Positions 28,095 through 39,521 are shown, numbered from the stretch's first letter. The stretch is DNA of 64,000 nucleotides from Pseudomonadota bacterium (GCA_023442755.1 JAEZXS010000244.1:1801-65800), one strand, 5' to 3'. The notes: a model not told the origin generated them from the letters alone. Numbers and translations: made by a program.

Positions 28095-28483
28095 TTGCTT
28101 TCCCTCCATTCCGAAGCGACACTCTTCCGTAAGACGGTTACCGGTTAAGATACTGCGGCCCGAACTGCGGGTGGGACATGAATTCTCCAGTCTTAGACTC
28201 TAGTCGGTAAGGAAGGCTGAAAACTAAAAACTTAACGGACCTATAATCATTGTTGGATCCTCACCGCCCTTCAGGCACGTTTGTCGTCGCCGCCCTCCCA
28301 TGCGGGCATCCCAAGACTCCGCGGAAGGCGCCTCAGCTCCCGGATACAGCTTCCCGGGATTGAAGAATAATTGCTGGCCCTTTGCCGGCACGGATGATAA
28401 ATAGGCTCGAAATCCCGACAAAAACTGAAGCGCCGGGCAAGGCGCTTGTCATTACGCCATTTAAAGGAGCCGGTTCGGAGTTC

Positions 28484-29389
28484 ATGACGGAAAAAACACC
28501 ACACAAATTGGGAACTTTACTGGTCAGCGGCTTTCTGGGAGCGGGCAAGACCACCTTTATCATGGAGCATGTGAAAACCTCTCAAGGCAGGACGGCGGTC
28601 CTGGTAAACGAGTTCGGCGATCTGGGAGTCGACGGTTCGCTGATCGATTCGAAGAACGGGGTCGATGTCGTGGAGGTGCCCGGCGGGTGCATCTGCTGTG
28701 GCCAGCAGGAAGGTTTGAAGGAAAGCATCCGGACGATTGCCGAAAAGATCAAGCCGGATACGCTTCTGATAGAACCAAGCGGCATTGCCCAGGCCTCGGG
28801 GGTCATAAATGTGCTGGAAGACGAAGTGCTCGCGGATGTTGTCCGGCTCGATGCCGTCATCACCATCGTGGACGCGTCGTCGTTTCTCGAGTTTTCAAAG
28901 CCGGAAACCTTCGGCACCTTCTTCCTCGACCAGGTAACCAACGCCGACCTTATCGTAATCAATAAAACCGACATGGTTTCCCCGGAGGAACTCGAAAAGG
29001 TATCCCGGCGAGTCTCAGTTCTGAATCCTTCCGCGCTGAGCGTGGAAACGACATTCTGCCGGATGGAAAGCCCTCTGCCGTCGGGCAGGACCAAAAAGGT
29101 TTTCTCCATGGGCAGGTTCAGCATCGGGATGGAGTGTTTCAGCATGGTCCCCGGTCAGCCGATTTCCAGGGACCGGCTGGACCAGTTCACCTCTGCCGTC
29201 ATCAAAGGAAGTTTCGGAAGGGTCTATCGGGGCAAAGGGATTTTCCCGAGTCCGGACGGCGGATGGGTCAACCTGCAGATTGTCGGCGAGAATGTGTCCG
29301 TAACACCTTTTTCGGAAGAGGTCCGGCCGCGGCTCACTCTCATCGGCTACGATCTGGACCGGCAGCAGGTCAGCCGGTTTTTGAGCTGA
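28484..29389 (+). CDS. CobW/COG0523-family G3E GTPase (metallochaperone-like)
   Basis: Walker A GFLGAGKTTF, CxCC motif GGCICCG, NKTD. I chose the start MTEKTPH, preceded by AAAGGAG. Confidence 0.8.
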   Translation: MTEKTPHKLGTLLVSGFLGAGKTTFIMEHVKTSQGRTAVLVNEFGDLGVDGSLIDSKNGVDVVEVPGGCICCGQQEGLKESIRTIAEKIKPDTLLIEPSGIAQASGVINVLEDEVLADVVRLDAVITIVDASSFLEFSKPETFGTFFLDQVTNADLIVINKTDMVSPEELEKVSRRVSVLNPSALSVETTFCRMESPLPSGRTKKVFSMGRFSIGMECFSMVPGQPISRDRLDQFTSAVIKGSFGRVYRGKGIFPSPDGGWVNLQIVGENVSVTPFSEEVRPRLTLIGYDLDRQQVSRFLS

Positions 29390-29544
29390 TTCGGTCGCGA
29401 CAATACAACGGAAAATGCCGGCTGGGCCGTACCTGAGCCCTTGCCGGCCGCCTTTCCGCGATCATCTATATGATGATTCGGGTCAGGTTATTTGCAGGAC
29501 TTTTTCTTTTTCGCGAAATCACCGATTCCGTGCTCGTAGGGTAT

Positions 29545-29643
29545 TCAGCCGGAAGAGCCTTCCATCCCGGGCAGGATCCACCTGTCGATCACGTACCAGA
29601 GGCCGGCTGCGGCTGCTATGATGATGATCACTCCCAACTCCAT
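29545..29643 (-). CDS. Possible 32-aa single-TM micropeptide
   Basis: GGAGGAGG lies 5 nt before the ATG. Product: MELGVIIIIAAAAGLWYVIDRWILPGMEGSSG. Confidence 0.35.
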   Translation of the reverse strand: MELGVIIIIAAAAGLWYVIDRWILPGMEGSSG

Positions 29644-29936
29644 CGAATCCTCCTCCGTGTGCGGCAAATCTCGGATGCTGTAATCATTGCCAATACGTAA
29701 TGCATATTCAAGCAAAAAGAACTGTTGGCCCGAAGATACCCAACTCAGCGGCACACGCCCCCATTTGAAATGCAATAATATTTTTCTGGAGATTTTCGTT
29801 TAGTTTGAGAAATTCTTAATTTTGTGCTTTTGTTTTCCCTACCTGGTGGAAGTGCTGGAAAACCCCGGTCATGCGAGTCACCAAAACCCGGGGCCAAACC
29901 GGTCGAACCTCGAAGCCGACAAATTGAGGAGACGTC

Positions 29937-30554
29937 ATGAGTTCCCAGACAGATCAGAGCGGTGAACCTTTCGTGCAGACGCTTACCTCTTTTCAGGAAA
30001 AATGTTCACTTTGCGGCAATGTATTTCCGCAGGACGTGATGGTCCGGTTTGGCGATAAATGGGTCTGTGCGACCTGCAAACCAAACTATGTACAAATGGT
30101 CCAACAGGGGTTGGCCGCATCGGGGCAGGTACGGTACGGTGGTTTCTGGATACGCTTCGGAGCCAGGGTGATCGATACTATTATTCTCCAGGTCGCCAAC
30201 TATATTGTGGTTGCCGGCATTGCACTGGTTTTTGCCATTGATGTAAAGCCCTCCAGCCCCAGTCAATTCACCGTAATGACCCTGCTGCAGATAGCCACAG
30301 CCTTGGTTTTGGGGCTTTCTTATGAGGTATGGTTCCTCGGGAACTACAGCGCGACTCCGGGCAAAATGATATGCGGGCTGAATGTTGTGCGTCCGGATGG
30401 CGAAAAGATAAGTTATATGCGGGCGCTGGGCCGGTATTTCGCCACGGGTCTGAGCGCTGCCATCATCGGGATCGGGTACATAATGGCCGGGTTTGACAGC
30501 GAGAAAAGAGCCCTTCACGACAGGGTCTGCGACACGCGGGTAGTCCGTAGATGA
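29937..30554 (+). CDS. Zinc-ribbon + RDD-family membrane protein (operon gene 1)
   Basis: CSLCGN...CATCKP, then the RDD-type segment YGGFWIRFGARVIDTIIL...RALHDRVCDTRVV. GAGGAG lies before the ATG. Confidence 0.75.
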   Translation: MSSQTDQSGEPFVQTLTSFQEKCSLCGNVFPQDVMVRFGDKWVCATCKPNYVQMVQQGLAASGQVRYGGFWIRFGARVIDTIILQVANYIVVAGIALVFAIDVKPSSPSQFTVMTLLQIATALVLGLSYEVWFLGNYSATPGKMICGLNVVRPDGEKISYMRALGRYFATGLSAAIIGIGYIMAGFDSEKRALHDRVCDTRVVRR

Positions 30555-31138
30555 TGGATGAATCCAGCGGCACGGCCATCTTTAACTGTTCCAAATGCGG
30601 AGCAGCCTTGCCGGACGGTGTGTTTCACACGAAACTGCCGGTTCCGTGTGAAAGGTGCGGCGCCGAGTCCCAAGTGCTTGTTTTTCCCGCACTGGTCAAT
30701 GGAACGTCCCGGGTGCAGTACGGCGATGCGCTGGAAACCGATGACGAAGCAAGTTGTTTCTATCACCCGGAGAAACGCGCGGTAACCGCATGTGAAAGTT
30801 GCGGCCGTTTTCTGTGCTCCCTGTGCGAGATAGGCATATCCGGCCGCAAGCTCTGCCCGAACTGCCTGGAACTGGGAAAGAACGATGAGCGGATAGTCGA
30901 GCTGGTGACGTACCGGACGCTCTACGACAGCATTGCCTGGGCGCTGGGCGTATGGCCCCTGCTGATAATAATCATGACAATAGTTACTGCGCCCATGGCA
31001 ATATATATTTCCGTTCGGCATTGGAAATCACCGACGAGCATTCTGGGCAGGACGAAGATCAGGTTTATCCTGGCGATCATCATAGCGCTGCTGGAACTGG
31101 GCGGATGGGCCGGAGTCCTGTCCCTGATACACCGCTGA
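30551..31138 (+). CDS. Zinc-ribbon + B-box-type zinc-finger membrane protein (gene 2)
   Basis: CSKCG...CERCG, then CFYHPEKRAVTACESCGRFLCSLC...CPNC, then 2-3 TM helices. ATGA overlap with gene 1. Confidence 0.65.
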   Translation: MMDESSGTAIFNCSKCGAALPDGVFHTKLPVPCERCGAESQVLVFPALVNGTSRVQYGDALETDDEASCFYHPEKRAVTACESCGRFLCSLCEIGISGRKLCPNCLELGKNDERIVELVTYRTLYDSIAWALGVWPLLIIIMTIVTAPMAIYISVRHWKSPTSILGRTKIRFILAIIIALLELGGWAGVLSLIHR

Positions 31139-32223
31139 TGGCGGGTCCGTTCGACAAGGAATCACAGGTGGAATACAGACGCCTCCCTGGAAAAAAGAAG
31201 GTCTTCCTTCGTCAGAACACCCTCTGGCTTGGTGAAGATCACCTCCTGGCTGTAGAATCCAACTACTTCAACGAAAGATATAACCGGCTCTACTTCAGGG
31301 ATTTCCAGGCCATTATCGTTCGAAAAACCAACAGATTTGCAGCCTGCAACATCGTGACGGCCACAGCGGCCGGTTTATGCGCCGTTTCAATGATTGCAGC
31401 GGGCGCCTGGCACTACCTGGGACTGAGCTTGGTCAGCGGCATAGCCCTTCTGCTATCTTTGATCGCGCTTGCAATGAACCTGATCCGTGGCGCCACATGT
31501 ACCTGCCATGTCGGAATGCCCCTTGCAGTTCATAACCTGCAGTCCGTTTGCAGGCTGAAATATGCACAGCGTATCCTTGCGGAAATTACCCCTCTCGTGC
31601 AAAAGTACCAGGGCCCGATGGATGTGGATGAGATCCGGTCCCAGTGGTTGCGCGGGGAGGTTTCCGGTACCCTGCCGGATTCGAAGCCGCGGGTAAACGG
31701 CTTACCACCGACCGGGGCGGTGCAGGAAGGTTCCTGTTTCTTTCACACGCTGCTATCGGGAGCTTTGCTCCTCGAAGTCCTGGTCACGGTGCTCGAGTTC
31801 CACTCCGGCCACTCCATGGTAAGACTGGCCAATGTCGTCACAGGCGCACTCCTTTTCGCGCTGGTGGTGACGGCGCTTGTCAAGCAACACCGGCGCTCGC
31901 TTCCCCGCACCTTGAAGGGATGGACCTGGACGGTCGCCGTGATGCTCGTTGTCTTTAATCTCGTTGCCATGTTCGCAGCCACAGTGATTCTGACGCTCAA
32001 AAGAGGCCCGAGGTCTCAAGCCGATCCGTTATCCTCCCTCCTCGAGTTTACCCCGGATGCCCATCCTTTCATGTCCAGGATATATGTCTGCTACATCATC
32101 GTATCGGTCGTCCTCGCCATATGGGGGCTGGCCGTAATAGCGGTTCACCGGAGGCAGTCCCGGAACAGGCCTTCATCCGGTGCGGATGCCTCCGCCTCCA
32201 TCCGGGAAGGTTCGGGCGCATGA
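31138..32223 (+). CDS. Polytopic membrane protein, unknown family (gene 3)
   Basis: The ATG at 31138 overlaps the gene 2 stop by 1 nt. Soluble N-terminus MAGPFDKESQVEYRRLPGKKKVFLRQNTLWLGEDHLL, then at least 5 TM. Confidence 0.6.
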   Translation: MAGPFDKESQVEYRRLPGKKKVFLRQNTLWLGEDHLLAVESNYFNERYNRLYFRDFQAIIVRKTNRFAACNIVTATAAGLCAVSMIAAGAWHYLGLSLVSGIALLLSLIALAMNLIRGATCTCHVGMPLAVHNLQSVCRLKYAQRILAEITPLVQKYQGPMDVDEIRSQWLRGEVSGTLPDSKPRVNGLPPTGAVQEGSCFFHTLLSGALLLEVLVTVLEFHSGHSMVRLANVVTGALLFALVVTALVKQHRRSLPRTLKGWTWTVAVMLVVFNLVAMFAATVILTLKRGPRSQADPLSSLLEFTPDAHPFMSRIYVCYIIVSVVLAIWGLAVIAVHRRQSRNRPSSGADASASIREGSGA

Positions 32224-32528
32224 CAGAGGTATCCCGACTCCGGTGTTTCAACCACGGCAACCGGGAGGCGGTGGCGCGCTGCCCCGCATGCTCGCGGACC
32301 TTTTGCCGGGAGTGCATAACCGAGCACGAAAATCGGGTAATTTGCGCCCAGTGCCTGTCGGCATTAGGGCAAGACGGCCGGGGGAAGCGCTCACGCGCCG
32401 CCGTGATGCTTCACGGGATAGTAAGCCTGGTGAGCTTCATTTTTCTCTGGGCAGTGTTTTACTATCTCGGGAAAATCCTGTTGAGCATGCCTTCTACATT
32501 TCATGAACCTTTTCAACACCTGTTCTAG
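32220..32528 (+). CDS. B-box-type zinc-finger protein with a C-terminal TM anchor (gene 4)
   Basis: ATGA overlap with gene 3. CFNHGNREAVARCPACSRTFCRECITEHENRVICAQC, then the hydrophobic segment HGIVSLVSFIFLWAVFYYLG. Confidence 0.6.
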   Translation: MTEVSRLRCFNHGNREAVARCPACSRTFCRECITEHENRVICAQCLSALGQDGRGKRSRAAVMLHGIVSLVSFIFLWAVFYYLGKILLSMPSTFHEPFQHLF

Positions 32529-32539
32529 AGACCAGAAAA

Positions 32540-34204
32540 ATGATTCCGGGCAATTCCCGCAGACCTGAAAAAGGGGCATTGGAAATTATCGAGGAAGCGA
32601 GCCTCCTGCTGAGGGTGGCTCCCGTCGGGAACATTCTCCGGTATTATCTGGGAACCGCCCCTTTTGTGCTCGGGTTCCTGTTATTCTGGGTCGACATGAG
32701 CAGCAGGGGGACTGCCGGCCCCCACCTGGCACATGCGTCACTGGGTATTGCCGTCCTCTACATCTGGATGAAGTGCTGGCAGGCGGTTTTCGTTTCCAGG
32801 CTCCGCTCTTTCCTGGAGGAAGCTCCTCCCGCCGGGTGGAACAGGGCGCGCCTGTTCCGGCTCGTCGGTATACAGTCGGCCTTGACACCCTGTATGGCAA
32901 TACTCCTTCCGCTTGCCCTTCTTGTTGCGCTGCCCTTCGGCTGGTGCTATGCATTTTTCCAGAACATCTCGATTTTCGGGGACGGATGCGGCAAACTGAA
33001 GACGAGCACGCGGAGCGCCTGGCGCCAGAGCCTTTTGTGGCCGGCACAAAACCACAAGATCATTCTCATTTACCTGGTCCTCACCGTGGTTGCCTTCTTC
33101 AATATCTGTGCGGCGGCCTACCTCGTCCCGACAGTGCTGCTGAAAGGCCTGCTGGGAATCGAGACCGTTTTCTCGCGCAACAGCGCTTTTTTCCTCAATA
33201 CCACCTTCCTGCTCGCAATGGCTTGCGTTACCTACCTGTGCGTAAACCCGCTCATAAAGGCCGCTTACGTCCTGCGCTGCTTTTACGGGGAATCCCTGTC
33301 TTCCGGGCGGGACATCCTGGCAGACTGGGGCAGGCTCCACCGCTTTGCAGGCCGGACGGTTCTGGTCTTCGCGATCACCGTCGCCACGCTGTTCTTTTCG
33401 CATAACGAAACGGCCGGGGCCGGGATTTCTACCCCACCGGCCGTTCAAACCGTGCCTCCGGAAAGGCTCGACCGCGCCATCTCGGACGTGATCGGGGGAA
33501 CGGAATATTCCTGGAGACTTCCTCGCGAACGGGTCGAGGAGCCCAAATCTTCCGGTTTTCCGGGGCAGGTCCTGGAGACGGTTGGCAGTTGGCTGAAAAA
33601 GCTCTGGGGCTGGCTGGTCGATGCCGTCGAATGGCTGAGCGAATGGCTGGGGAAGCTGATGGGCGAGCAATCGAACGCGGCGCCGGCCAAGCGCTCCGGC
33701 ATGTCCGGCAGCGTGAAGCTTTGGCTCACCCTGTTGCTGGCCGTTGCGGCGGTTACCGTCGCCTTGCTGCTCCGGAAGGTCCTGAAAGCCGGAAAGCCTT
33801 GCGCGAAAGCCGTGGGGGGAGAAGCGCCGGGCCGGTCCGAAGTTGACCTGAGCGATGAGCAAATCTCGGCCGATCAACTGCCGGAGTCCCGGTGGCTGAC
33901 ATTGGCGAAGAATCTGCTGAAAGATGGCGAGTACCGTCTCGCATTGCGGGCATTCCATTTTGCCGCCCTGGTCCATCTGTCCGACCGGAGCCTTCTGACT
34001 GTCTCGAGGTTCAAATCCAACCGGGATTACGAGCGCGAGCTCAGAAGACGCGCCCACGCCTTTCCCGGCCTGATCGACGCATTTTCCGAAAATATCACGA
34101 TCCTGGAAAAAGTCTGGTATGGGATGCACAGTGCCGGGCAGGGAACAATTCGGAAGTTCCTGGACAATCAGGAACAGATCACGGCAGATGCGCATGTCCG
34201 ATAA
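32540..34204 (+). CDS. Large membrane protein with a DUF4129-like C-terminal domain (gene 5)
   Basis: Multiple TM. C-terminus WLTLAKNLLKDGEYRLALRAFHFAALVHLSDRSLLTVSRFKSNRDYEREL is typical of DUF4129. Confidence 0.65.
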   Translation: MIPGNSRRPEKGALEIIEEASLLLRVAPVGNILRYYLGTAPFVLGFLLFWVDMSSRGTAGPHLAHASLGIAVLYIWMKCWQAVFVSRLRSFLEEAPPAGWNRARLFRLVGIQSALTPCMAILLPLALLVALPFGWCYAFFQNISIFGDGCGKLKTSTRSAWRQSLLWPAQNHKIILIYLVLTVVAFFNICAAAYLVPTVLLKGLLGIETVFSRNSAFFLNTTFLLAMACVTYLCVNPLIKAAYVLRCFYGESLSSGRDILADWGRLHRFAGRTVLVFAITVATLFFSHNETAGAGISTPPAVQTVPPERLDRAISDVIGGTEYSWRLPRERVEEPKSSGFPGQVLETVGSWLKKLWGWLVDAVEWLSEWLGKLMGEQSNAAPAKRSGMSGSVKLWLTLLLAVAAVTVALLLRKVLKAGKPCAKAVGGEAPGRSEVDLSDEQISADQLPESRWLTLAKNLLKDGEYRLALRAFHFAALVHLSDRSLLTVSRFKSNRDYERELRRRAHAFPGLIDAFSENITILEKVWYGMHSAGQGTIRKFLDNQEQITADAHVR

Positions 34205-35432
34205 GACCGCTGCATTTCTTCTCGTCCTGCTGCTGGGCTGCGTTTCTGCGGGCCTTTACGGTGTGTTGATGCTGCGCTTCGAAACCGGGGACGTCTATCC
34301 GGCATACTCCTCCCTGCGCCCGGACCCTCTTGGCGCAAAGGCGCTTTTCGAGGCCTTCGAGCGGATTCCGGGCGTCTCCATCGAGCGTAATTATCGGCCG
34401 TTGACGAAGCTTGCCGGCAAAGAAAATCTGACCCTTTTCTATCTCGGCCTGCGGCCGGAATTCCTGGCCTCGGGTCCGGATAAGGTCGTGGACGGCATCG
34501 AGGCACTGGCCGGGAAGGGCGCGAGGGTGGTTATGGCATTCCGGTCTGGGGTGAGAAGACCGGCCGCCAGGATTGTGCCGCCGGGAACCGCCGGAGAGAA
34601 TGAAAATCCCCGGCAGAATTCGCAAAAAGACACGGATGAACAGCAGGCAGCAGACGCTCAGCGGGAAAAGGAAGCCAGGAAATCCGCCGGAGAGAAGTGG
34701 GGGGTGAAAGCGTCTTACCTGCCGGCCCTTCAGCCGAATGAGCGGGACATTGCCGTTGCGTCTCTCAAGGAGGGGGCAGCCGGGTTGCCTGACGATTTCC
34801 CCCTGCACTCCGCCTTCTGTTTCAAAGACCTCGGCCGTGACTGGAAGGTCCTCTATTCCGCGGGGGAATGTCCGATCATCATAGAACGTCCCCTTGGGGC
34901 CGGAGGCCTGGTCCTGGTTGCCGATTCCTTCATTTTCAGCAATGAAGCCATGCTGAAAGAGCGCAGCCCGTGTCTGCTCTCATGGCTTGCGGGCAATTGC
35001 CGGTCGATCGTTTTCGATGAGCATCATCTCGGGGTGAGCGAGCATCCGGGAATGATGACGCTTTTGCGAAGATACCGGCTGCACGGCTTTTTCGCCGCAC
35101 TGGCATTGCTGTCGGGGTTGTTTCTCTGGCGCAACATGGTCCGCTTTATCCCGGAAGTGATGGATGAACCCGCCAAAAATCCGGGCGTTTCTCCCGGGGG
35201 GGACCAGGTGGACGGCCTGGTGAATCTTTTGGGGAGGAACATAAAACCCGGGGTTCTTCTGGCAACGTGCTTTGACGAGTGGGAGAAGACCGCCGGACGG
35301 GACCGCCGCGGGATGGATGATAGAATCCGGCAGGCGCGCGACGTCGTCCGGGAGGAAACCGGCAAGAAACGGGACAATGCCGCGGCTTACAGGGAGATTT
35401 CCCGAATTCTCTCAGACAGGATACGCAGATGA
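34188..35432 (+). CDS. DUF4350-like membrane-anchored protein (gene 6)
   Basis: The start at 34188 or 34194 overlaps the end of gene 5. N-terminal TM, then YSSLRPDPLGAKALFEAFERIPGVSIERNY. C-terminal TM. Confidence 0.55.
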   Translation: MRMSDKTAAFLLVLLLGCVSAGLYGVLMLRFETGDVYPAYSSLRPDPLGAKALFEAFERIPGVSIERNYRPLTKLAGKENLTLFYLGLRPEFLASGPDKVVDGIEALAGKGARVVMAFRSGVRRPAARIVPPGTAGENENPRQNSQKDTDEQQAADAQREKEARKSAGEKWGVKASYLPALQPNERDIAVASLKEGAAGLPDDFPLHSAFCFKDLGRDWKVLYSAGECPIIIERPLGAGGLVLVADSFIFSNEAMLKERSPCLLSWLAGNCRSIVFDEHHLGVSEHPGMMTLLRRYRLHGFFAALALLSGLFLWRNMVRFIPEVMDEPAKNPGVSPGGDQVDGLVNLLGRNIKPGVLLATCFDEWEKTAGRDRRGMDDRIRQARDVVREETGKKRDNAAAYREISRILSDRIRR

Positions 35433-36400
35433 ATGGTTATGACGATGCGGACCGATTGAAGGAGAGCCTCAATCGGGCAAGAGAGGAGCTGGCCAAGGTA
35501 ATCATAGGCCAGAAGGATACCATCGACCTGGCCCTGGTGGCGGTATTGACGGGGCAGCACATCCTGGTGGAAGGTGTGCCGGGGGTGGCCAAAACCCTGC
35601 TCGTTCGCACCCTGGCCCATGTGTTCGGAGGCCAGTTCTCCCGAATCCAGTTCACCCCGGACCTCATGCCCGCAGATATCACCGGTACGCATATTTTCAA
35701 CATGAAAGAAGGCGAATTCGTACTGGCCAAGGGTCCCATATTCACCAAATTCCTTCTGGCCGACGAAATCAATCGGGCTCCGGCCAAGACTCAGTCGGCA
35801 TTGCTTCAGGGCATGCAGGAGAAAGCGGTCACCATCGACCGGCAGACCTACCCGCTCCCACCGGAATTCATCGTATTCGCCACGCAGAACCCGGTCGAAT
35901 TCGAGGGTACCTACCCGTTGCCGGAAGCCCAGAGGGACAGGTTCATGCTCAAGCTTTCGATGACCAGTCCGGCCAGGGAAGAAGAACTCATGCTGGCGAA
36001 ACGCATGCTCGGCTCGGACACCCCGGAGGATGTGCTGGCAAGGGGTGCGGTAAACCAGGTGGTTGCGGACGGCGAATTGACGCGGCTCAAAGGAGACCTT
36101 GGTTCGATAACCGTTCGCGAGGAACTGATCGAGTATGTTCTGGACATCGTGCGCGCGAGCCGCACGCATCACGCCGTGCTGCTGGGCGCGGGACCACGCG
36201 CGACCCAGAGCCTGCTGCTGGCTGCCCGCGCCTATGCCGCGGTCTCGGGGCGGGATTTCGTGACCCCTGACGATGTGAAATTCCTGGCGCCGCACGCCCT
36301 CGTGCATCGGCTGATTTTGCGCCCCGAATATGAAATCCAGGGAACGACGGTTTCCGAGGTGGTGGAATCGCTGCTCCAGGAGGTAGCCGTACCGAGATGA
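35429..36400 (+). CDS. moxR: MoxR-family AAA+ ATPase (gene 7)
   Basis: GVPGVAKT, LLADEINRAPAKTQSALLQGMQE, VFATQNP. ATGA overlap with gene 6. Confidence 0.9.
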   Translation: MNGYDDADRLKESLNRAREELAKVIIGQKDTIDLALVAVLTGQHILVEGVPGVAKTLLVRTLAHVFGGQFSRIQFTPDLMPADITGTHIFNMKEGEFVLAKGPIFTKFLLADEINRAPAKTQSALLQGMQEKAVTIDRQTYPLPPEFIVFATQNPVEFEGTYPLPEAQRDRFMLKLSMTSPAREEELMLAKRMLGSDTPEDVLARGAVNQVVADGELTRLKGDLGSITVREELIEYVLDIVRASRTHHAVLLGAGPRATQSLLLAARAYAAVSGRDFVTPDDVKFLAPHALVHRLILRPEYEIQGTTVSEVVESLLQEVAVPR

Positions 36401-37725
36401 TAGTTCCATGCAACAGGCTGCTGTTCCTGGTGGGAGTCACGACTCTGCCCATGTCGGTCGTCGCCGCGGCGGTTCCCGCCGTTTTGCCGCTGCTGCTTGG
36501 AACGTTCGCGGTAATCACGCTGATCAGCCTGCTGGATGCGCTGCATGCCGGCCGAGCGATAAGAGGTTTGCATGTGAAATTTCCGGAGAAGGTTAATCTC
36601 CTTCGGAAACATGACGAGTTCCTGAATTTCACCGTCTATCACGATCGCCCGTTCGGGACGCTGTATATGGGGCTTGCCCTGCCTCGCGAGGTGCAGACGA
36701 CGCGCAGAGAGCTGGTTGTCGCTCTGCCGCCGGAAGGCGAAGGGCTGCCGATCGCCTGGCCTGTAAACGCGAAGGCGAGAGGGGAGTATGTGCTTTCCAG
36801 GTGCTATTTTCGCGTTCCGTCCCGTCTCGGATTGTGGATGAAGCAGGGAAGCCTGCCGGCCGGAACCCGAATCTTTGTTTACCCGGACCTTTTGAGCGAG
36901 CACAGGAGAGTTTGGGCTCTCTTCCCGCGCCGGGGTGGAGCGGGTATTCATGTCCATCGCCAAAGAGGCCAGGGGAAAGAGTTCGAGAAACTTCGGGACT
37001 ACCTGCCGGGAGACAGCATGAGCGACGTGCACTGGAGGATGACCGCCAAACGCAACAGGCTGGTGACCAAGGAATACCAGTTGGAGCGTACGCAGGAGAT
37101 TTACGTGGTCATCGACGCTTCGCGGCTCAGCGCCCGGCCTGCCGGCCCGGACGCGGCTGAACCTCTTCTGGAGCGTTATATCGGTTCGGCATTGATTCTC
37201 GGCGATTTTGCCCAGCGACAGGGCGACCGGTTCGGATTGCTCGCTTTCAGCAATCGCATGCTGACCTTCATCAGGGCCGCCGGGGGCAAAATGCATTTTC
37301 GAGCCTGCCGCGATGCCCTGCTGAACCTGCATCCACAGCCGGTCACTCCCGATTTCGAGGAGCTTGCCGGCACAATTTTGCAGAACCTGAGGCGGAGAGC
37401 GCTGCTGCTGTTCCTGACGAGCCTGGATGACCCGTCCCTGGCCGACAGTTTCATGTCCGATTTGGAAGCGGTCGCCCGCAGGCACATCATCCTTGTCAAT
37501 ATGATCAGGCATTCCTCGGCGCGCCCCCTCTTTTCCGACGGGGAGGTGGCCGGCGACCGGGATATCTACAGCCGGCTGGGAGGGCACCTGGTCTGGAACA
37601 ATCTTCGGCAGCTGGATGTCCTGCTCCGGCGGCGCGGGATGGGCTTTGCTCTTGCCGACCGGGAAAATCTGGGCGTGGAGATGATCGATCGCTACGTCGA
37701 TATCAAACGAAGGCAGGTTCTGTGA
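36397..37725 (+). CDS. DUF58 (vWA-like) protein, the usual MoxR partner (gene 8)
   Basis: LRDYLPGDSMSDVHWRMTAKRNRLVTKEYQLERTQEIYVVIDAS. Two N-terminal TM. ATGA overlap. Confidence 0.85.
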   Translation: MIVPCNRLLFLVGVTTLPMSVVAAAVPAVLPLLLGTFAVITLISLLDALHAGRAIRGLHVKFPEKVNLLRKHDEFLNFTVYHDRPFGTLYMGLALPREVQTTRRELVVALPPEGEGLPIAWPVNAKARGEYVLSRCYFRVPSRLGLWMKQGSLPAGTRIFVYPDLLSEHRRVWALFPRRGGAGIHVHRQRGQGKEFEKLRDYLPGDSMSDVHWRMTAKRNRLVTKEYQLERTQEIYVVIDASRLSARPAGPDAAEPLLERYIGSALILGDFAQRQGDRFGLLAFSNRMLTFIRAAGGKMHFRACRDALLNLHPQPVTPDFEELAGTILQNLRRRALLLFLTSLDDPSLADSFMSDLEAVARRHIILVNMIRHSSARPLFSDGEVAGDRDIYSRLGGHLVWNNLRQLDVLLRRRGMGFALADRENLGVEMIDRYVDIKRRQVL

Positions 37726-38720
37726 TACTGGACCTCGAAAAATTCATTGCGAAACAGCGGGGAGTCTGGCGCGAACTCGATGAGCTGCTGAGCGTGCTGG
37801 AAAGAGATTCCGGCGCGCGGATGGACCTGGAGAAGATAAAGCGCTTTCACTATCTCTACCAGGTTACCTCCGCCGATCTGGGCAAACTGCGGAGTTTCGC
37901 CTGCGAGCCCGAACTGCGGGCCTACCTGGAGTCATTGGTCGCTCGCGCGTTCGGCGAGATCCACGACGGCGGACCGGGGGGCTCCCGAGTGCGGGTTCGC
38001 GGGGCATTCTTCAATTCATTTCCCGGGGTCTTTCGCCGACGCATAGCGGCTTTCCGGCTGGCCCTTGCCGCCATGCTGGTAGGCGCTTTCTTTGGGGCGG
38101 CGCTGCTGGTAATCGACAGCGATGCCAAGGAAGCCCTTCTGCCTTTCGACCAGCTTCTCGGCAGTCCTTCCGAACGCGTCGCAAAAGAAGAACTGGGGGG
38201 GAATGAAGCACTTGAAAAACGCAAAATTGTCTTTTCCAGTCAACTGATGACCAACAACATCCGGGTTGCAATACTCTGCCTGGCAATGGGCATCACTTTC
38301 GGGACAGGCACCCTGGTGCTTCTCTTCTACAACGGCGCAATCCTTGGAGTGGTCGTTCTTGACTACCTGAGGGCGGGACATACGGCCTTTCTCATGGGAT
38401 GGCTGCTTCCGCACGGTTCGGTTGAAATACCGGCCATTCTGATCGCGGGCCAGGCAGGGCTCGTCCTTGCGGGAGCGCTTATCGGCCGCCGGGACTGCAT
38501 GCCGCTGGGCGCCCGGCTGCGCGGCGTCTCATCCGACTTGGTGGTGCTTATAGGCGGGACCGCGGTCATGCTCGTCTGGGCCGGAATAATAGAGGCATTC
38601 TTTTCACAGTACCACGAGCCCAACCTTCCTTATGCCGCAAAGATCGTCTTCGGGGTTGCCGAACTGCTCGTTCTCATCCTGTTTCTGGCAAGAAAAAACC
38701 CGAATTCCGAACCGGCGTGA
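37722..38720 (+). CDS. SpoIIM-like (DUF95) membrane protein (gene 9)
   Basis: NNIRVAILCLAMGITFGTGTLVLLFYNGAILG...LLPHGSVEIPAILIAGQAGL. GTGA overlap (GTG start). Confidence 0.75.
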   Translation: MILDLEKFIAKQRGVWRELDELLSVLERDSGARMDLEKIKRFHYLYQVTSADLGKLRSFACEPELRAYLESLVARAFGEIHDGGPGGSRVRVRGAFFNSFPGVFRRRIAAFRLALAAMLVGAFFGAALLVIDSDAKEALLPFDQLLGSPSERVAKEELGGNEALEKRKIVFSSQLMTNNIRVAILCLAMGITFGTGTLVLLFYNGAILGVVVLDYLRAGHTAFLMGWLLPHGSVEIPAILIAGQAGLVLAGALIGRRDCMPLGARLRGVSSDLVVLIGGTAVMLVWAGIIEAFFSQYHEPNLPYAAKIVFGVAELLVLILFLARKNPNSEPA

Positions 38721-38732
38721 GGGGATTCAATC

Positions 38733-39521
38733 ATGCCCGACAAAACCAAAACGCTCTCCGTCAGGACACCCGAAGGGATTGAATTTTCGTTGCAGATCGC
38801 AGGACCGGCGAGCCGTTTTCTCGCCTGTCTGATTGACGCGTCCTGCATCTCCGCGGCGGCGGTTTTTGTCGGCAACCTGCTGAAAATGGTTACGGTGGTC
38901 AGCGAACAGCTCGGTATGGCCCTGCTGGTTCTGTCATATTTCGCAATCTCCGTTGGCTATGGGATAGCCCTGGAATGGTTGTGGAGGGGAAGGACGATCG
39001 GTAAGCGGCTGTTGCGCCTCCGGGTGATGGACGCACAAGGATTGCGGTTGCAGTTCAGCCAGATCGTAGTTCGCAATCTTCTTCGTGCGGTGGACAGCCT
39101 GCCCTTTTTCTACATGGTGGGTGGAGTGGCTTCCCTCCTGAGTCTTCGTGGCCAGAGAGTGGGGGATATCGCGGCGAATACCGTTGTGGTGAGGAACCCC
39201 GAAATATTCGAGCCTAACCTGGAAAAACTGCTGCCGGACAAATACAATTCCCTTCGGGAATATCCGCATTGGGCCGCCCGCCTGCGCGGCAACGTTTCGC
39301 CGGAAGAAGCCTACCTGGTGATGCGCGCGCTTTTGCGACGCGACCAGCTCGATCCTGTCGCAAGGGTCTCCCTTTTCGGTGAAATGGCGGCACACCTGAA
39401 ATCGATCGTCCAGTTTCCGCAGGAAGCCCTGGAGGGAATAACTGACGAGCGGTATCTCAGAAACGTGGTGGACGTGGTCCTTCGCCCCAGCGCCGACGGC
39501 CGCCGCAACGGGTCAGAGTAG
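38733..39521 (+). CDS. RDD-family membrane protein (gene 10)
   Basis: RFLACLIDASCI...RGRTIGKRLLRLRVMD...VRNLLRAVD. GAGGGG lies before the ATG. Confidence 0.75.
   Translation: MPDKTKTLSVRTPEGIEFSLQIAGPASRFLACLIDASCISAAAVFVGNLLKMVTVVSEQLGMALLVLSYFAISVGYGIALEWLWRGRTIGKRLLRLRVMDAQGLRLQFSQIVVRNLLRAVDSLPFFYMVGGVASLLSLRGQRVGDIAANTVVVRNPEIFEPNLEKLLPDKYNSLREYPHWAARLRGNVSPEEAYLVMRALLRRDQLDPVARVSLFGEMAAHLKSIVQFPQEALEGITDERYLRNVVDVVLRPSADGRRNGSE

Follow-up and report, generated by a model that had tools for sequence, protein, structure and literature searches.

Are the ten genes that lie end to end between positions 29937 and 39521 of a 64,000-nt stretch of DNA from a Pseudomonadota bacterium (GCA_023442755.1 JAEZXS010000244.1:1801-65800; the whole stretch is termed here the window) a single unit, and what might their products do together? 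The genes, designated G1 to G10, are most likely one conserved, self-contained operon for a single complex of the cytoplasmic membrane. Far more confidence attaches to their inheritance as one unit than to any view of the client on which such a complex would act. The products may come from a single transcript and may physically associate as a single stoichiometric complex, and such a complex is what the initial annotation of this DNA had argued for from the packing of the genes.

To describe this packing, every junction was re-derived from the sequence. The ten open reading frames (ORFs) are uninterrupted and all lie on the + strand (Table 1), and the distances between successive genes, from G1 to G10, are -4, -1, -4, +11, -17 (or -11), -4, -4, -4 and +12 nt. 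Start and stop codons overlap as ATGA at 30551, 32220, 35429 and 36397 and as GTGA at 37722; G2 and G3 share one nucleotide in a TGATG at 31138, and G5 and G6 overlap by 17 or 11 nt at 34188/34194. The +11 and +12 nt spacers are the sole gaps among the nine junctions. All coordinates and junction sequences match the ten packed, same-strand genes with overlapping starts and stops of the initial annotation, as do the largest gaps, which it had put at 11-12 nt. In a Kyte-Doolittle scan, transmembrane (TM) segments were observed in nine of the ten products, the proportion originally proposed; the exception is MoxR, which has none at a threshold of 1.6. A laxer hydropathy scan marks one MoxR segment over the Walker A region, which is not a real TM segment.

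Table 1. Genes of the cassette and features of the region preceding it (window coordinates; aa, amino acids).
Feature	Coordinates	Strand	Description
Upstream intergenic region	29390..29936		547 nt; AT-rich around 29690-29830
GAGGAG Shine-Dalgarno / ribosome-binding site	about 29921-29926	+	5 nt upstream of G1
G1	29937..30554	+	205 aa; CxxC...CxxC zinc ribbon, then RDD domain, 3 TM segments
G2	30551..31138	+	195 aa; zinc ribbon and B-box-type binuclear zinc finger, C-terminal 2-TM hairpin
G3	31138..32223	+	361 aa; beta-rich cytoplasmic N-domain, TM hairpin, conserved segment and helix, four extra TM segments
G4	32220..32528	+	102 aa; N-terminal B-box-type zinc finger, one TM segment, short C-terminal tail
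G5	32540..34204	+	554 aa; polytopic at aa 1-290 (about 6 TM segments), ~100-aa loop, TM segment, C-terminal DUF4129
G6	34188..35432	+	414 aa, alternative start 34194; TM anchor, DUF4350, second TM segment, charged tail
G7	35429..36400	+	323 aa; soluble MoxR-family AAA+ ATPase
G8	36397..37725	+	442 aa; N-terminal TM hairpin and DUF58 (vWA-like) domain, predicted cytoplasmic
G9	37722..38720	+	332 aa, GTG start; ~110-aa cytoplasmic N-terminal helical domain and SpoIIM/DUF95, 5-6 TM segments
G10	38733..39521	+	262 aa; RDD membrane domain and ~120-aa C-terminal helical domain

The conservation of the cassette was examined from both of its halves. For the 3' half, a G5 profile (G5 has more than 1,700 full-length relatives) was used to scan one genome per GTDB species; the best 80 of 324 confirmed loci were retained. 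Each of the ten window proteins served to build an iterated profile, and the six-frame ORFs of all loci were searched with these profiles. By record title, the genome loci comprise approximately 36 from Verrucomicrobiota, 24 from Desulfobacterota, 3 from Nitrospirota and 5 from Acidobacteriota, along with 4 'Pseudomonadota' metagenome-assembled genomes (MAGs) and 6 contigs bearing doubtful 'Bifidobacterium' labels; the closest of those from Desulfobacterota, Desulfarculales UBA702, displays 59% identity. The complete G1-G10 order on one strand was found in 48 of 83 genome-derived loci. The other 35 include four deviants (L018, L053, L067 and L080) and one locus (L036) in which G8 falls under a masked run of N, the remainder being cut by contig ends. 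Of the first contigs found to carry a G3 homologue, one (L002) has the complete ten-gene order and two (L001 and L003) are truncated.

In the reverse test, metagenome contigs were searched with a profile of the N-terminal core of G3. At least 463 stretches were matched, and 80 contigs entered the set; all 28 contigs of 6 kb or more follow the G1-G10 order, with 12 complete and 2 breaking early (after G4 or G6). In total, 60 complete copies and six deviants were obtained. As the order recurs with either half as the anchor, the two halves are not adjacent by chance, and their co-occurrence, which the initial annotation had left to comparative analysis, is strict within this subfamily. No flanking gene family is common to more than 9 of the 83 loci; since the flanking genes (housekeeping genes) are not conserved, the unit consists of exactly these ten genes. 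In the orthologous loci a 4-nt overlap is the median state (about half or more) at junctions 4/5 to 9/10, against a rough expectation of ~10% for unrelated same-strand neighbours. The ten-gene arrangement exceeds chance. The full cassette is also present in a cultured organism, Pedosphaera parvula Ellin514. Across phyla, identity is ~65% for MoxR, ~55% for G10, 52% for G9, ~43% for G2, G4 and G8, 38% for G5, 33% for G6 and 28% for G3, and conservation is flat and parallel for all ten proteins.

Two observations concern the composition of these sets. The broken loci are interrupted after G4 (L085), G6 (L018 and L096), G7 (L067) and G8 (L053), and in L080 G5 is present but G1-G4 are missing. A division into the sub-modules G1-4, G5-6, G7-8 and G9-10 is suggested by the interruptions after G4, G6 and G8 but does not accommodate the one after G7, and the broken loci may be assembly chimeras. 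The six contigs labelled as uncultured Bifidobacterium or Bifidobacteriaceae (L015, L021, L030, L034, L049 and L054) are all third-party annotation (TPA) 'binchicken' MAG contigs, and their G5 proteins are 39-42% identical to that of the window, the same range as in the Verrucomicrobiota loci; the labels look wrong.

The second half of the cassette, in which DUF4129, DUF4350, MoxR, DUF58, SpoIIM and RDD proteins are encoded by successive genes, also occurs by itself. A tblastn search of plasmids with G9 yielded 49 Rhizobium and 2 Paracoccus plasmids. In the two loci analyzed, one per genus, the order on one strand is DUF805, DUF4129, DUF4350, MoxR, DUF58, SpoIIM, RDD; these loci have a short DUF4129 protein (of 251 aa in Rhizobium, L164) and no G1-G4. 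The one or two DUF805 membrane-protein genes that precede the plasmid core (L164 3548-4631; L165 4239-4679) stand where G1-G4 would be and may form an accessory module of another kind. In Nonomuraea gerenzanensis the genes are DUF4350, MoxR, DUF58, an inverted SpoIIM gene and RDD, and DUF4129 was not detected there; the inversion agrees with the 'c' in Rv3694c of Mycobacterium tuberculosis. We take Rv3690 to be the DUF4129 member of the mycobacterial neighborhood. M. tuberculosis Rv3691-Rv3695 are annotated with the Nonomuraea layout, and their M. chelonae orthologues are co-regulated (PMC8191103). The initial annotation had described the 3' half as a widely conserved neighborhood; the mycobacterial annotation and the Rhizobium and Paracoccus plasmids bear this out, as does Nonomuraea for the last five families. 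Because the core occurs alone elsewhere, what the window carries is a widespread six-gene module in augmented form, with G1-G4 and the 290-aa polytopic N-domain of G5 added to it. The core of six genes is known from annotation, has received brief mention in comparative-genomics papers and is uncharacterized; the ten-gene version was not described in the literature searched. Burroughs, Iyer and Aravind 2011 (Mol Biosyst 7:2261, on prokaryotic B-boxes) may cover part of it.

The only product of the ten with a solved relative detectable by sequence is G7 (PDB 2R44, 1e-79), which matches the Pfam families AAA_3 (3.5e-62) and AAA_lid_2 (1e-21) and, secondarily, the bpMoxR model (6e-13). Its Walker A (GVPGVAKT, of the form GxPGxAKT) and Walker B (LLADEINR, with the DE pair) motifs are invariant in 68 orthologues, and the sensor 1, sensor 2 and arginine motifs (TQNP, GAGPRAT and PEAQRDRF) are mostly or wholly conserved in the alignment. 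As had been noted at the outset, MoxR is the only obvious enzyme of the cassette: the Pfam and NCBIfam scans find no second one. Its neighbor G8, whose gene overlaps that of G7 by 4 nt, matches DUF58 (1.8e-17) and is presumed to be the adaptor for MoxR; the residues D240-A-S242-R243-L244-S245 and T341...D344-D345 are invariant in 59 sequences. G9 matches SpoIIM (PF01944, 5.8e-34); its orthologues also bear DUF8413 (precomputed Pfam), and the motifs 'PHG..E.PA' and 'YHEP' are conserved. G10 contains an RDD domain (1.4e-15). PDB sequence searches with the DUF58 and SpoIIM-like relatives revealed no solved homologue, and none was found for the DUF4350 relatives.

In G6, a DUF4350 match (3e-10) covers a domain of ~270 aa that is predicted to lie in the periplasm; no other protein of the ten has a large domain there. 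The DUF4350-containing arCOG01314 family displays HHpred similarity to GldG, according to PMC5898192. By positive-inside counts, the charged tail of G6 is predicted to be cytoplasmic, as are the zinc fingers of the cassette, the N-domains of G3 and G9 and the DUF58 domain.

In G5, a DUF4129 domain lies C-terminal to the last TM segment, and the gene stands together with those for MoxR and DUF58. The match in the window protein (5e-4) is under the Pfam gathering score; DUF4129 was matched in 20 of 20 G5 relatives (best 1e-8), and no other family was. The alignment of 20 sequences has 59 invariant columns, and the N-terminal 290 aa, a subfamily-specific addition, are strongly conserved and belong to no Pfam family; their invariant polar residues include D52, K78, Q81, N171, H172 and R246. 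The AlphaFold2 (AF2) model of G5 has a mean predicted local distance difference test (pLDDT) score of 75, and Foldseek returned no PDB structure for it at E <= 0.001; local resemblances to CysZ-like and HEPN-like proteins have TM-scores or E-values too poor to use. To judge from its sequence, G5 looks like a YebA/TgpA-type protein minus the transglutaminase core. Neither Transglut_core nor other peptidase models match G5 or 19 relatives, even at E <= 1, and the loop at 288-391 is too short for a transglutaminase core and mostly helical in the AF2 model; G5 as a TgpA/YebA homologue was ruled out, as it is without that core. The profile of G5 showed no significant match to the short Rhizobium DUF4129 protein in hhalign, and the link between the two consists of the shared Pfam match and the gene position.

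The first four genes encode two kinds of zinc-binding modules and an orphan protein. G1 combines an RDD domain (6e-26) with a ribbon whose cysteines C23, C26, C44 and C47 are invariant in 40 orthologues. A GYF_2 domain is N-terminal in 33 of these 40 (for example, L167 5638-6441) and is missing from the G1 of the window and its closest relatives. In G2, the zinc-ribbon ligands C13, C16, C33 and C36 and the eight B-box ligands C69, H72, C81, C84, C89, C92, C102 and C105 are invariant in 40 sequences. The zf-B_box match of the window protein (7e-5, 23.3 bits) is just under the Pfam gathering score of 24.1, and 30 of the 40 orthologues match at E <= 0.01. G4 matches zf-B_box (6e-4, 20.3 bits vs 24.1) and ANCHR-like_BBOX (6e-4), both under the gathering scores; the Cys/His residues C9, H12, C21, C24, C29, C32, H36, C42 and C45 are conserved in 80 sequences, with the spacing C9-x2-H-x8-C-x2-C-x4-C-x2-C-x3-H-x5-C-x2-C. 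Both G2 and G4 thus contain eight Cys/His ligands at B-box spacing in what is predicted to be a binuclear treble-clef pattern. The tail of G4, in which a P..FHEPF motif is conserved, is predicted to lie in the periplasm, the positive-inside count giving an N-in orientation. G2 and G4 as anti-sigma factors (zf-HC2) received no support from Pfam; no dedicated search for an adjacent extracytoplasmic function (ECF) sigma gene was made.

Hidden Markov model (HMM) scans support every family assigned in the initial annotation (RDD, B-box, DUF4129, DUF4350, MoxR, DUF58 and SpoIIM), with one distinction: RDD, DUF4350, MoxR, DUF58 and SpoIIM are recognized in the window proteins themselves, whereas DUF4129 and the B-boxes are sub-threshold there and emerge at the level of the family. 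The ligands of the zinc-ribbon RDD protein and of the two B-box membrane proteins that it had listed are conserved in their families. The NCBIfam scan of the ten products added nothing specific beyond Pfam.

G3 has no Pfam or NCBIfam match. It appeared at first to be a rare gene, as a word-index search gave only 10 homologues; this was overturned by the HMM searches of the loci and by exhaustive HMMER, which gives 2,871 clusters (2,570 at E <= 1e-10), so that the count of ten was an artefact of sensitivity. The conserved segment reads 'GPTCxCH...LPSL.RL'. Approximately half of the orthologues are of a short form (about 170-220 aa) and half of a long form (about 330-360 aa) with four extra TM segments, to which the window protein belongs. 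The AF2 model has a mean pLDDT of 66, and no PDB structure was found by Foldseek at E <= 0.001 (best 0.016, TM-score about 0.2); a resemblance to cytochrome oxidase III scored too poorly to use. In GYF-positive loci the short form has proline-rich tails (about 18% Pro), which are possible GYF ligands; the association between GYF_2 in G1 and the short form of G3 is not significant (Fisher p = 0.17). The N-terminal beta-rich domain is vaguely PH-like in the AF2 model, with no Pfam bPH match to G3, and in Pedosphaera parvula a gene for a bPH_2 membrane protein (L167 4592-5122) lies ~500 nt upstream of the cassette.

What could such an assembly do? The reading that we tentatively put forward, which falls a little short of an even chance, is an inner-membrane remodeling complex powered by MoxR and its vWA partner, in which the zinc-finger and GYF modules would serve as cytoplasmic adaptors for peptide recognition or assembly. 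The AAA+ ring formed by G7 would dock on the membrane via the anchored vWA-like DUF58 protein G8, probably with the help of the cytoplasmic DUF4129 domain of G5, and ATP hydrolysis would remodel, assemble or extract a polypeptide client. Polytopic G5, SpoIIM-like G9, the RDD proteins G1 and G10, and G3 would provide the platform for this work. The subfamily-specific additions (the ribbon of G1, joined in most orthologues by GYF_2; the ribbon of G2; the B-boxes of G2 and G4; the beta-rich domain of G3; and the N-domain of G5) would be adaptors that face the cytoplasm and select peptides or aid assembly, and the GldG-like DUF4350 domain of G6, as the only sizeable periplasmic part, would tie the machine to the envelope. 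We propose this complex because published inferences on its constituents can be combined with the anatomy of the cassette. The MoxR-vWA-YebA/TgpA triad has been proposed to be a membrane-proximal protein-processing system (PMC3495828). DUF4350 together with MoxR and vWA proteins is predicted to form a secretion or membrane-remodeling complex in archaea, and SpoIIM homologues are noted beside vWA and COG0714 ATPase genes in bacteria (PMC5898192; for the former also Makarova et al. 2015). DUF95/SpoIIM proteins have been implicated in peptide maturation (PMC13463998), and SpoIIM-like Rv3694c and the RDD protein Rv3695 co-purify in one pull-down, along with the divisome-associated Rv0954 (PMC8093794).

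Several points weigh against a MoxR-driven remodeling complex. Apart from MoxR, the Pfam and NCBIfam scans of the ten products detected no enzyme, whether protease, transglutaminase or other, and the polypeptide client is a putative one. The MIDAS-like (metal ion-dependent adhesion site-like) motif of G8 is non-canonical, with DxSxxS in place of DxSxS. The topologies of G1, G5 and G10 are ambiguous by a simple positive-inside count, and the AF2 models of G3 and G5 are of moderate confidence and have no structural analogue. The few loci broken after G4, G6, G7 or G8 would mean, unless they are assembly errors, that the modules are separable.

One alternative explanation, unlikely but deserving to be weighed first, is an envelope-directed scaffold, secretion or membrane-remodeling system, in which the SpoIIM-like protein would recruit periplasmic hydrolases or other envelope factors, DUF4350 would act in the periplasm, and MoxR and DUF58 would only assemble or gate the apparatus. 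It can call on the archaeal prediction and the bacterial SpoIIM neighborhoods cited above, on the co-purification of Rv3694c and Rv3695 with a divisome-associated protein, and on the size of the periplasmic domain of G6; moreover, in the DMP engulfment complex of sporulation SpoIIM acts as a membrane scaffold, holding the peptidoglycan hydrolases with SpoIID and SpoIIP as its partners. However, the cassette has no gene for a hydrolase, a secreted substrate, S-layer or Ig-like proteins (arCOG02884 and others), outer-membrane proteins or an ABC transporter, and none is conserved in the flanks. Nearly all of the conserved soluble mass is predicted to be cytoplasmic, and the additions of this subfamily are zinc-finger and GYF modules, which require a reducing cytoplasm.

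An additional scenario, which extends the remodeling complex and which we consider rather unlikely, is a new class of AAA+-driven inner-membrane machine, in which B-box, ribbon and GYF modules select clients, MoxR and the vWA protein extract, insert or process them, and SpoIIM/DUF95 or the N-domain of G5 is a new intramembrane enzyme. If true, it would place SpoIIM-like, RDD and DUF4129 proteins and two orphan families on one platform, as a bacterial counterpart of the adaptor-guided quality control of membrane proteins in eukaryotes.

A further alternative is a role in ion or metal homeostasis, with RDD antiporters or channels, zinc domains that sense metal, and a MoxR/vWA pair that handles a metal cofactor (cf. 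NorQD and CoxDE). Several characterized MoxR-vWA pairs mature metal centers, and three products of the cassette have invariant zinc sites. The RDD antiporter of Halobacillus andaensis is said to be specific for Na+(Li+,K+)/H+. PMC5996927 reports this RDD protein as a cation/H+ antiporter. Just upstream of the cassette, at 28382-29389 (+) and separated from it by 547 nt, the window has a gene for a CobW/COG0523 GTPase, of a zinc-metallochaperone family, adjoining a cassette that encodes three zinc-finger proteins; the closest relative, L001, also has cobW nearby (L001 2100-2801). This neighbor is not conserved beside the cassette in the other loci, so that CobW was rejected as a conserved partner and represents local synteny only. 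In addition, the Cys and His residues are arranged as in zinc ribbons and B-boxes with a structural role, not as in sensor sites; neither a metal-dependent regulator nor a Zur/Fur-type element turned up near the cassette, which encodes no metalloenzyme client. We regard a function in metal or ion homeostasis as improbable.

A still different possibility is a MoxR-vWA system for conflict or anti-phage defense, which would sense invasion at the membrane and respond by membrane disruption. MoxR-vWA modules feature in 'ternary' conflict systems (PMC7159879), and the bpMoxR match of G7, the self-contained nature of the cassette, its variable flanks and the flat similarity across phyla are compatible with this and with horizontal transfer. 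Nevertheless, PADLOC-DB 2.0 models match none of the ten proteins, effector domains (nuclease, protease, TIR, pore toxin) are lacking, evolution is slow, as judged from MoxR, gene order is strictly fixed, and the flanks are not defense islands, which makes a defense role very improbable. Finally, a maturation cluster for a circular bacteriocin-like RiPP (ribosomally synthesized and post-translationally modified peptide) built around the DUF95/SpoIIM protein is hardly credible, for although all known circular bacteriocin clusters have such a protein, with an implied part in leader cleavage and circularization (PMC6131525, PMC13463998), neither the cassette nor its surroundings show a conserved small ORF that resembles a precursor, genes for an ABC transporter and a small cationic immunity protein are lacking, the host phyla are Gram-negative while known producers are Firmicutes, and the fixed MoxR/DUF58 context of the core is missing from bacteriocin clusters.

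The region upstream of G1 was also inspected for regulatory elements. No sigma-70-like site was found there, and an Rfam scan of this region gave zero matches. A sigma-54-like motif was not enriched in the orthologous upstream regions (3 of 63, vs 1.2 in shuffles), and a recurrent upstream k-mer, 'ATGAACTGGTATTACG', was rejected as a promoter, as it is the coding sequence of the GYF_2 N-terminus (MNWYY). Within this intergenic region, on the - strand at about 29545-29640, a small ORF preceded by GGAGGA encodes a hydrophobic 32-aa peptide, MELGVIIIIAAAAGLWYVIDRWILPGMEGSSG, which may be a small membrane protein. Long antisense ORFs were observed at 32738-34195 (-; 485 aa) over G5, at 35387-36409 (-; 340 aa) over G7 and at 36232-37587 (-; 451 aa) over G8. 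Nothing points to any of the three being a gene; long frames of this kind are usual on the antisense strand of G+C-rich coding DNA, which probably accounts for them.

Few AAA+ systems of prokaryotes are as widespread as the MoxR-DUF58 modules, of which almost none has a known client. The cassette offers a closed, strictly syntenic set of ten components in over 300 species that belong to no fewer than four phyla of soil, sediment and groundwater, and hence a defined parts list for reconstitution and electron cryomicroscopy, in which the core is separated from the accessory parts. Two sizeable families without annotation come to light in it, that of G3 (about 2,900 clusters) and that of the G5 N-domain, and bacterial B-box and GYF_2 domains gain a concrete membrane context. 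Although not in itself surprising to a specialist, the cassette is clean, widespread and experimentally approachable, and its client, if found, would inform the mycobacterial Rv3689-Rv3695 and rhizobial plasmid loci.

Several known systems resemble the cassette in part. The paradigm for the model is the pairing of an AAA+ ring of the MoxR clade with a client-holding vWA adaptor, as in RavA-ViaA, NorQ-NorD, CbbQ-CbbO and CoxD-CoxE; the clients of these pairs are respiratory complexes, nitric oxide reductase, Rubisco and carbon monoxide dehydrogenase, and the adaptor of the cassette differs from theirs in being membrane-anchored and in its non-canonical motif. The Bat operons (MoxR, DUF58 and BatA-E; in Borrelia, BB0170-BB0176) likewise encode MoxR and DUF58 in a same-strand operon for inner-membrane proteins (PMC5700661, PMC11834572); no canonical TM-anchored vWA protein (BatA, BatB), TPR protein (BatC, BatE) or BatD was found in the Pfam scan of the ten products. 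G9 is of the same family, PF01944, as SpoIIM of the B. subtilis DMP engulfment machine and the DUF95 proteins of circular bacteriocins, which are polytopic membrane proteins that organize or process other proteins; it has an extra N-terminal cytoplasmic domain (DUF8413), and the cassette is without SpoIID/SpoIIP, a precursor peptide or an ABC transporter.

The archaeal DUF4350 proteins of arCOG01314 have a large extracytoplasmic domain and are encoded beside COG0714 ATPase and vWA genes, as in the cassette, but their neighborhoods add S-layer/Ig-like proteins and have no SpoIIM, RDD, DUF4129 or B-box partners. The YebA/TgpA triad (B. subtilis yeaC-yeaD-yebA; P. aeruginosa TgpA) shares with the cassette a MoxR, a DUF58 and a polytopic DUF4129 protein, but includes no DUF4350, SpoIIM, RDD or zinc-finger proteins, and possesses the transglutaminase core that G5 lacks. 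Finally, the mycobacterial Rv3689-Rv3695 locus (MAB_0386c-0392c; its ATPase is MoxR2) and the rhizobial module comprise the same families as the second half of the cassette, DUF4129, DUF4350, MoxR, DUF58, SpoIIM-like and RDD. The mycobacterial and plasmid loci have no G1-G4, and the Rhizobium DUF4129 protein has no counterpart of the polytopic N-domain of G5, whereas the order and strand of the genes in the Rhizobium/Paracoccus plasmid module are those of G5-G10.

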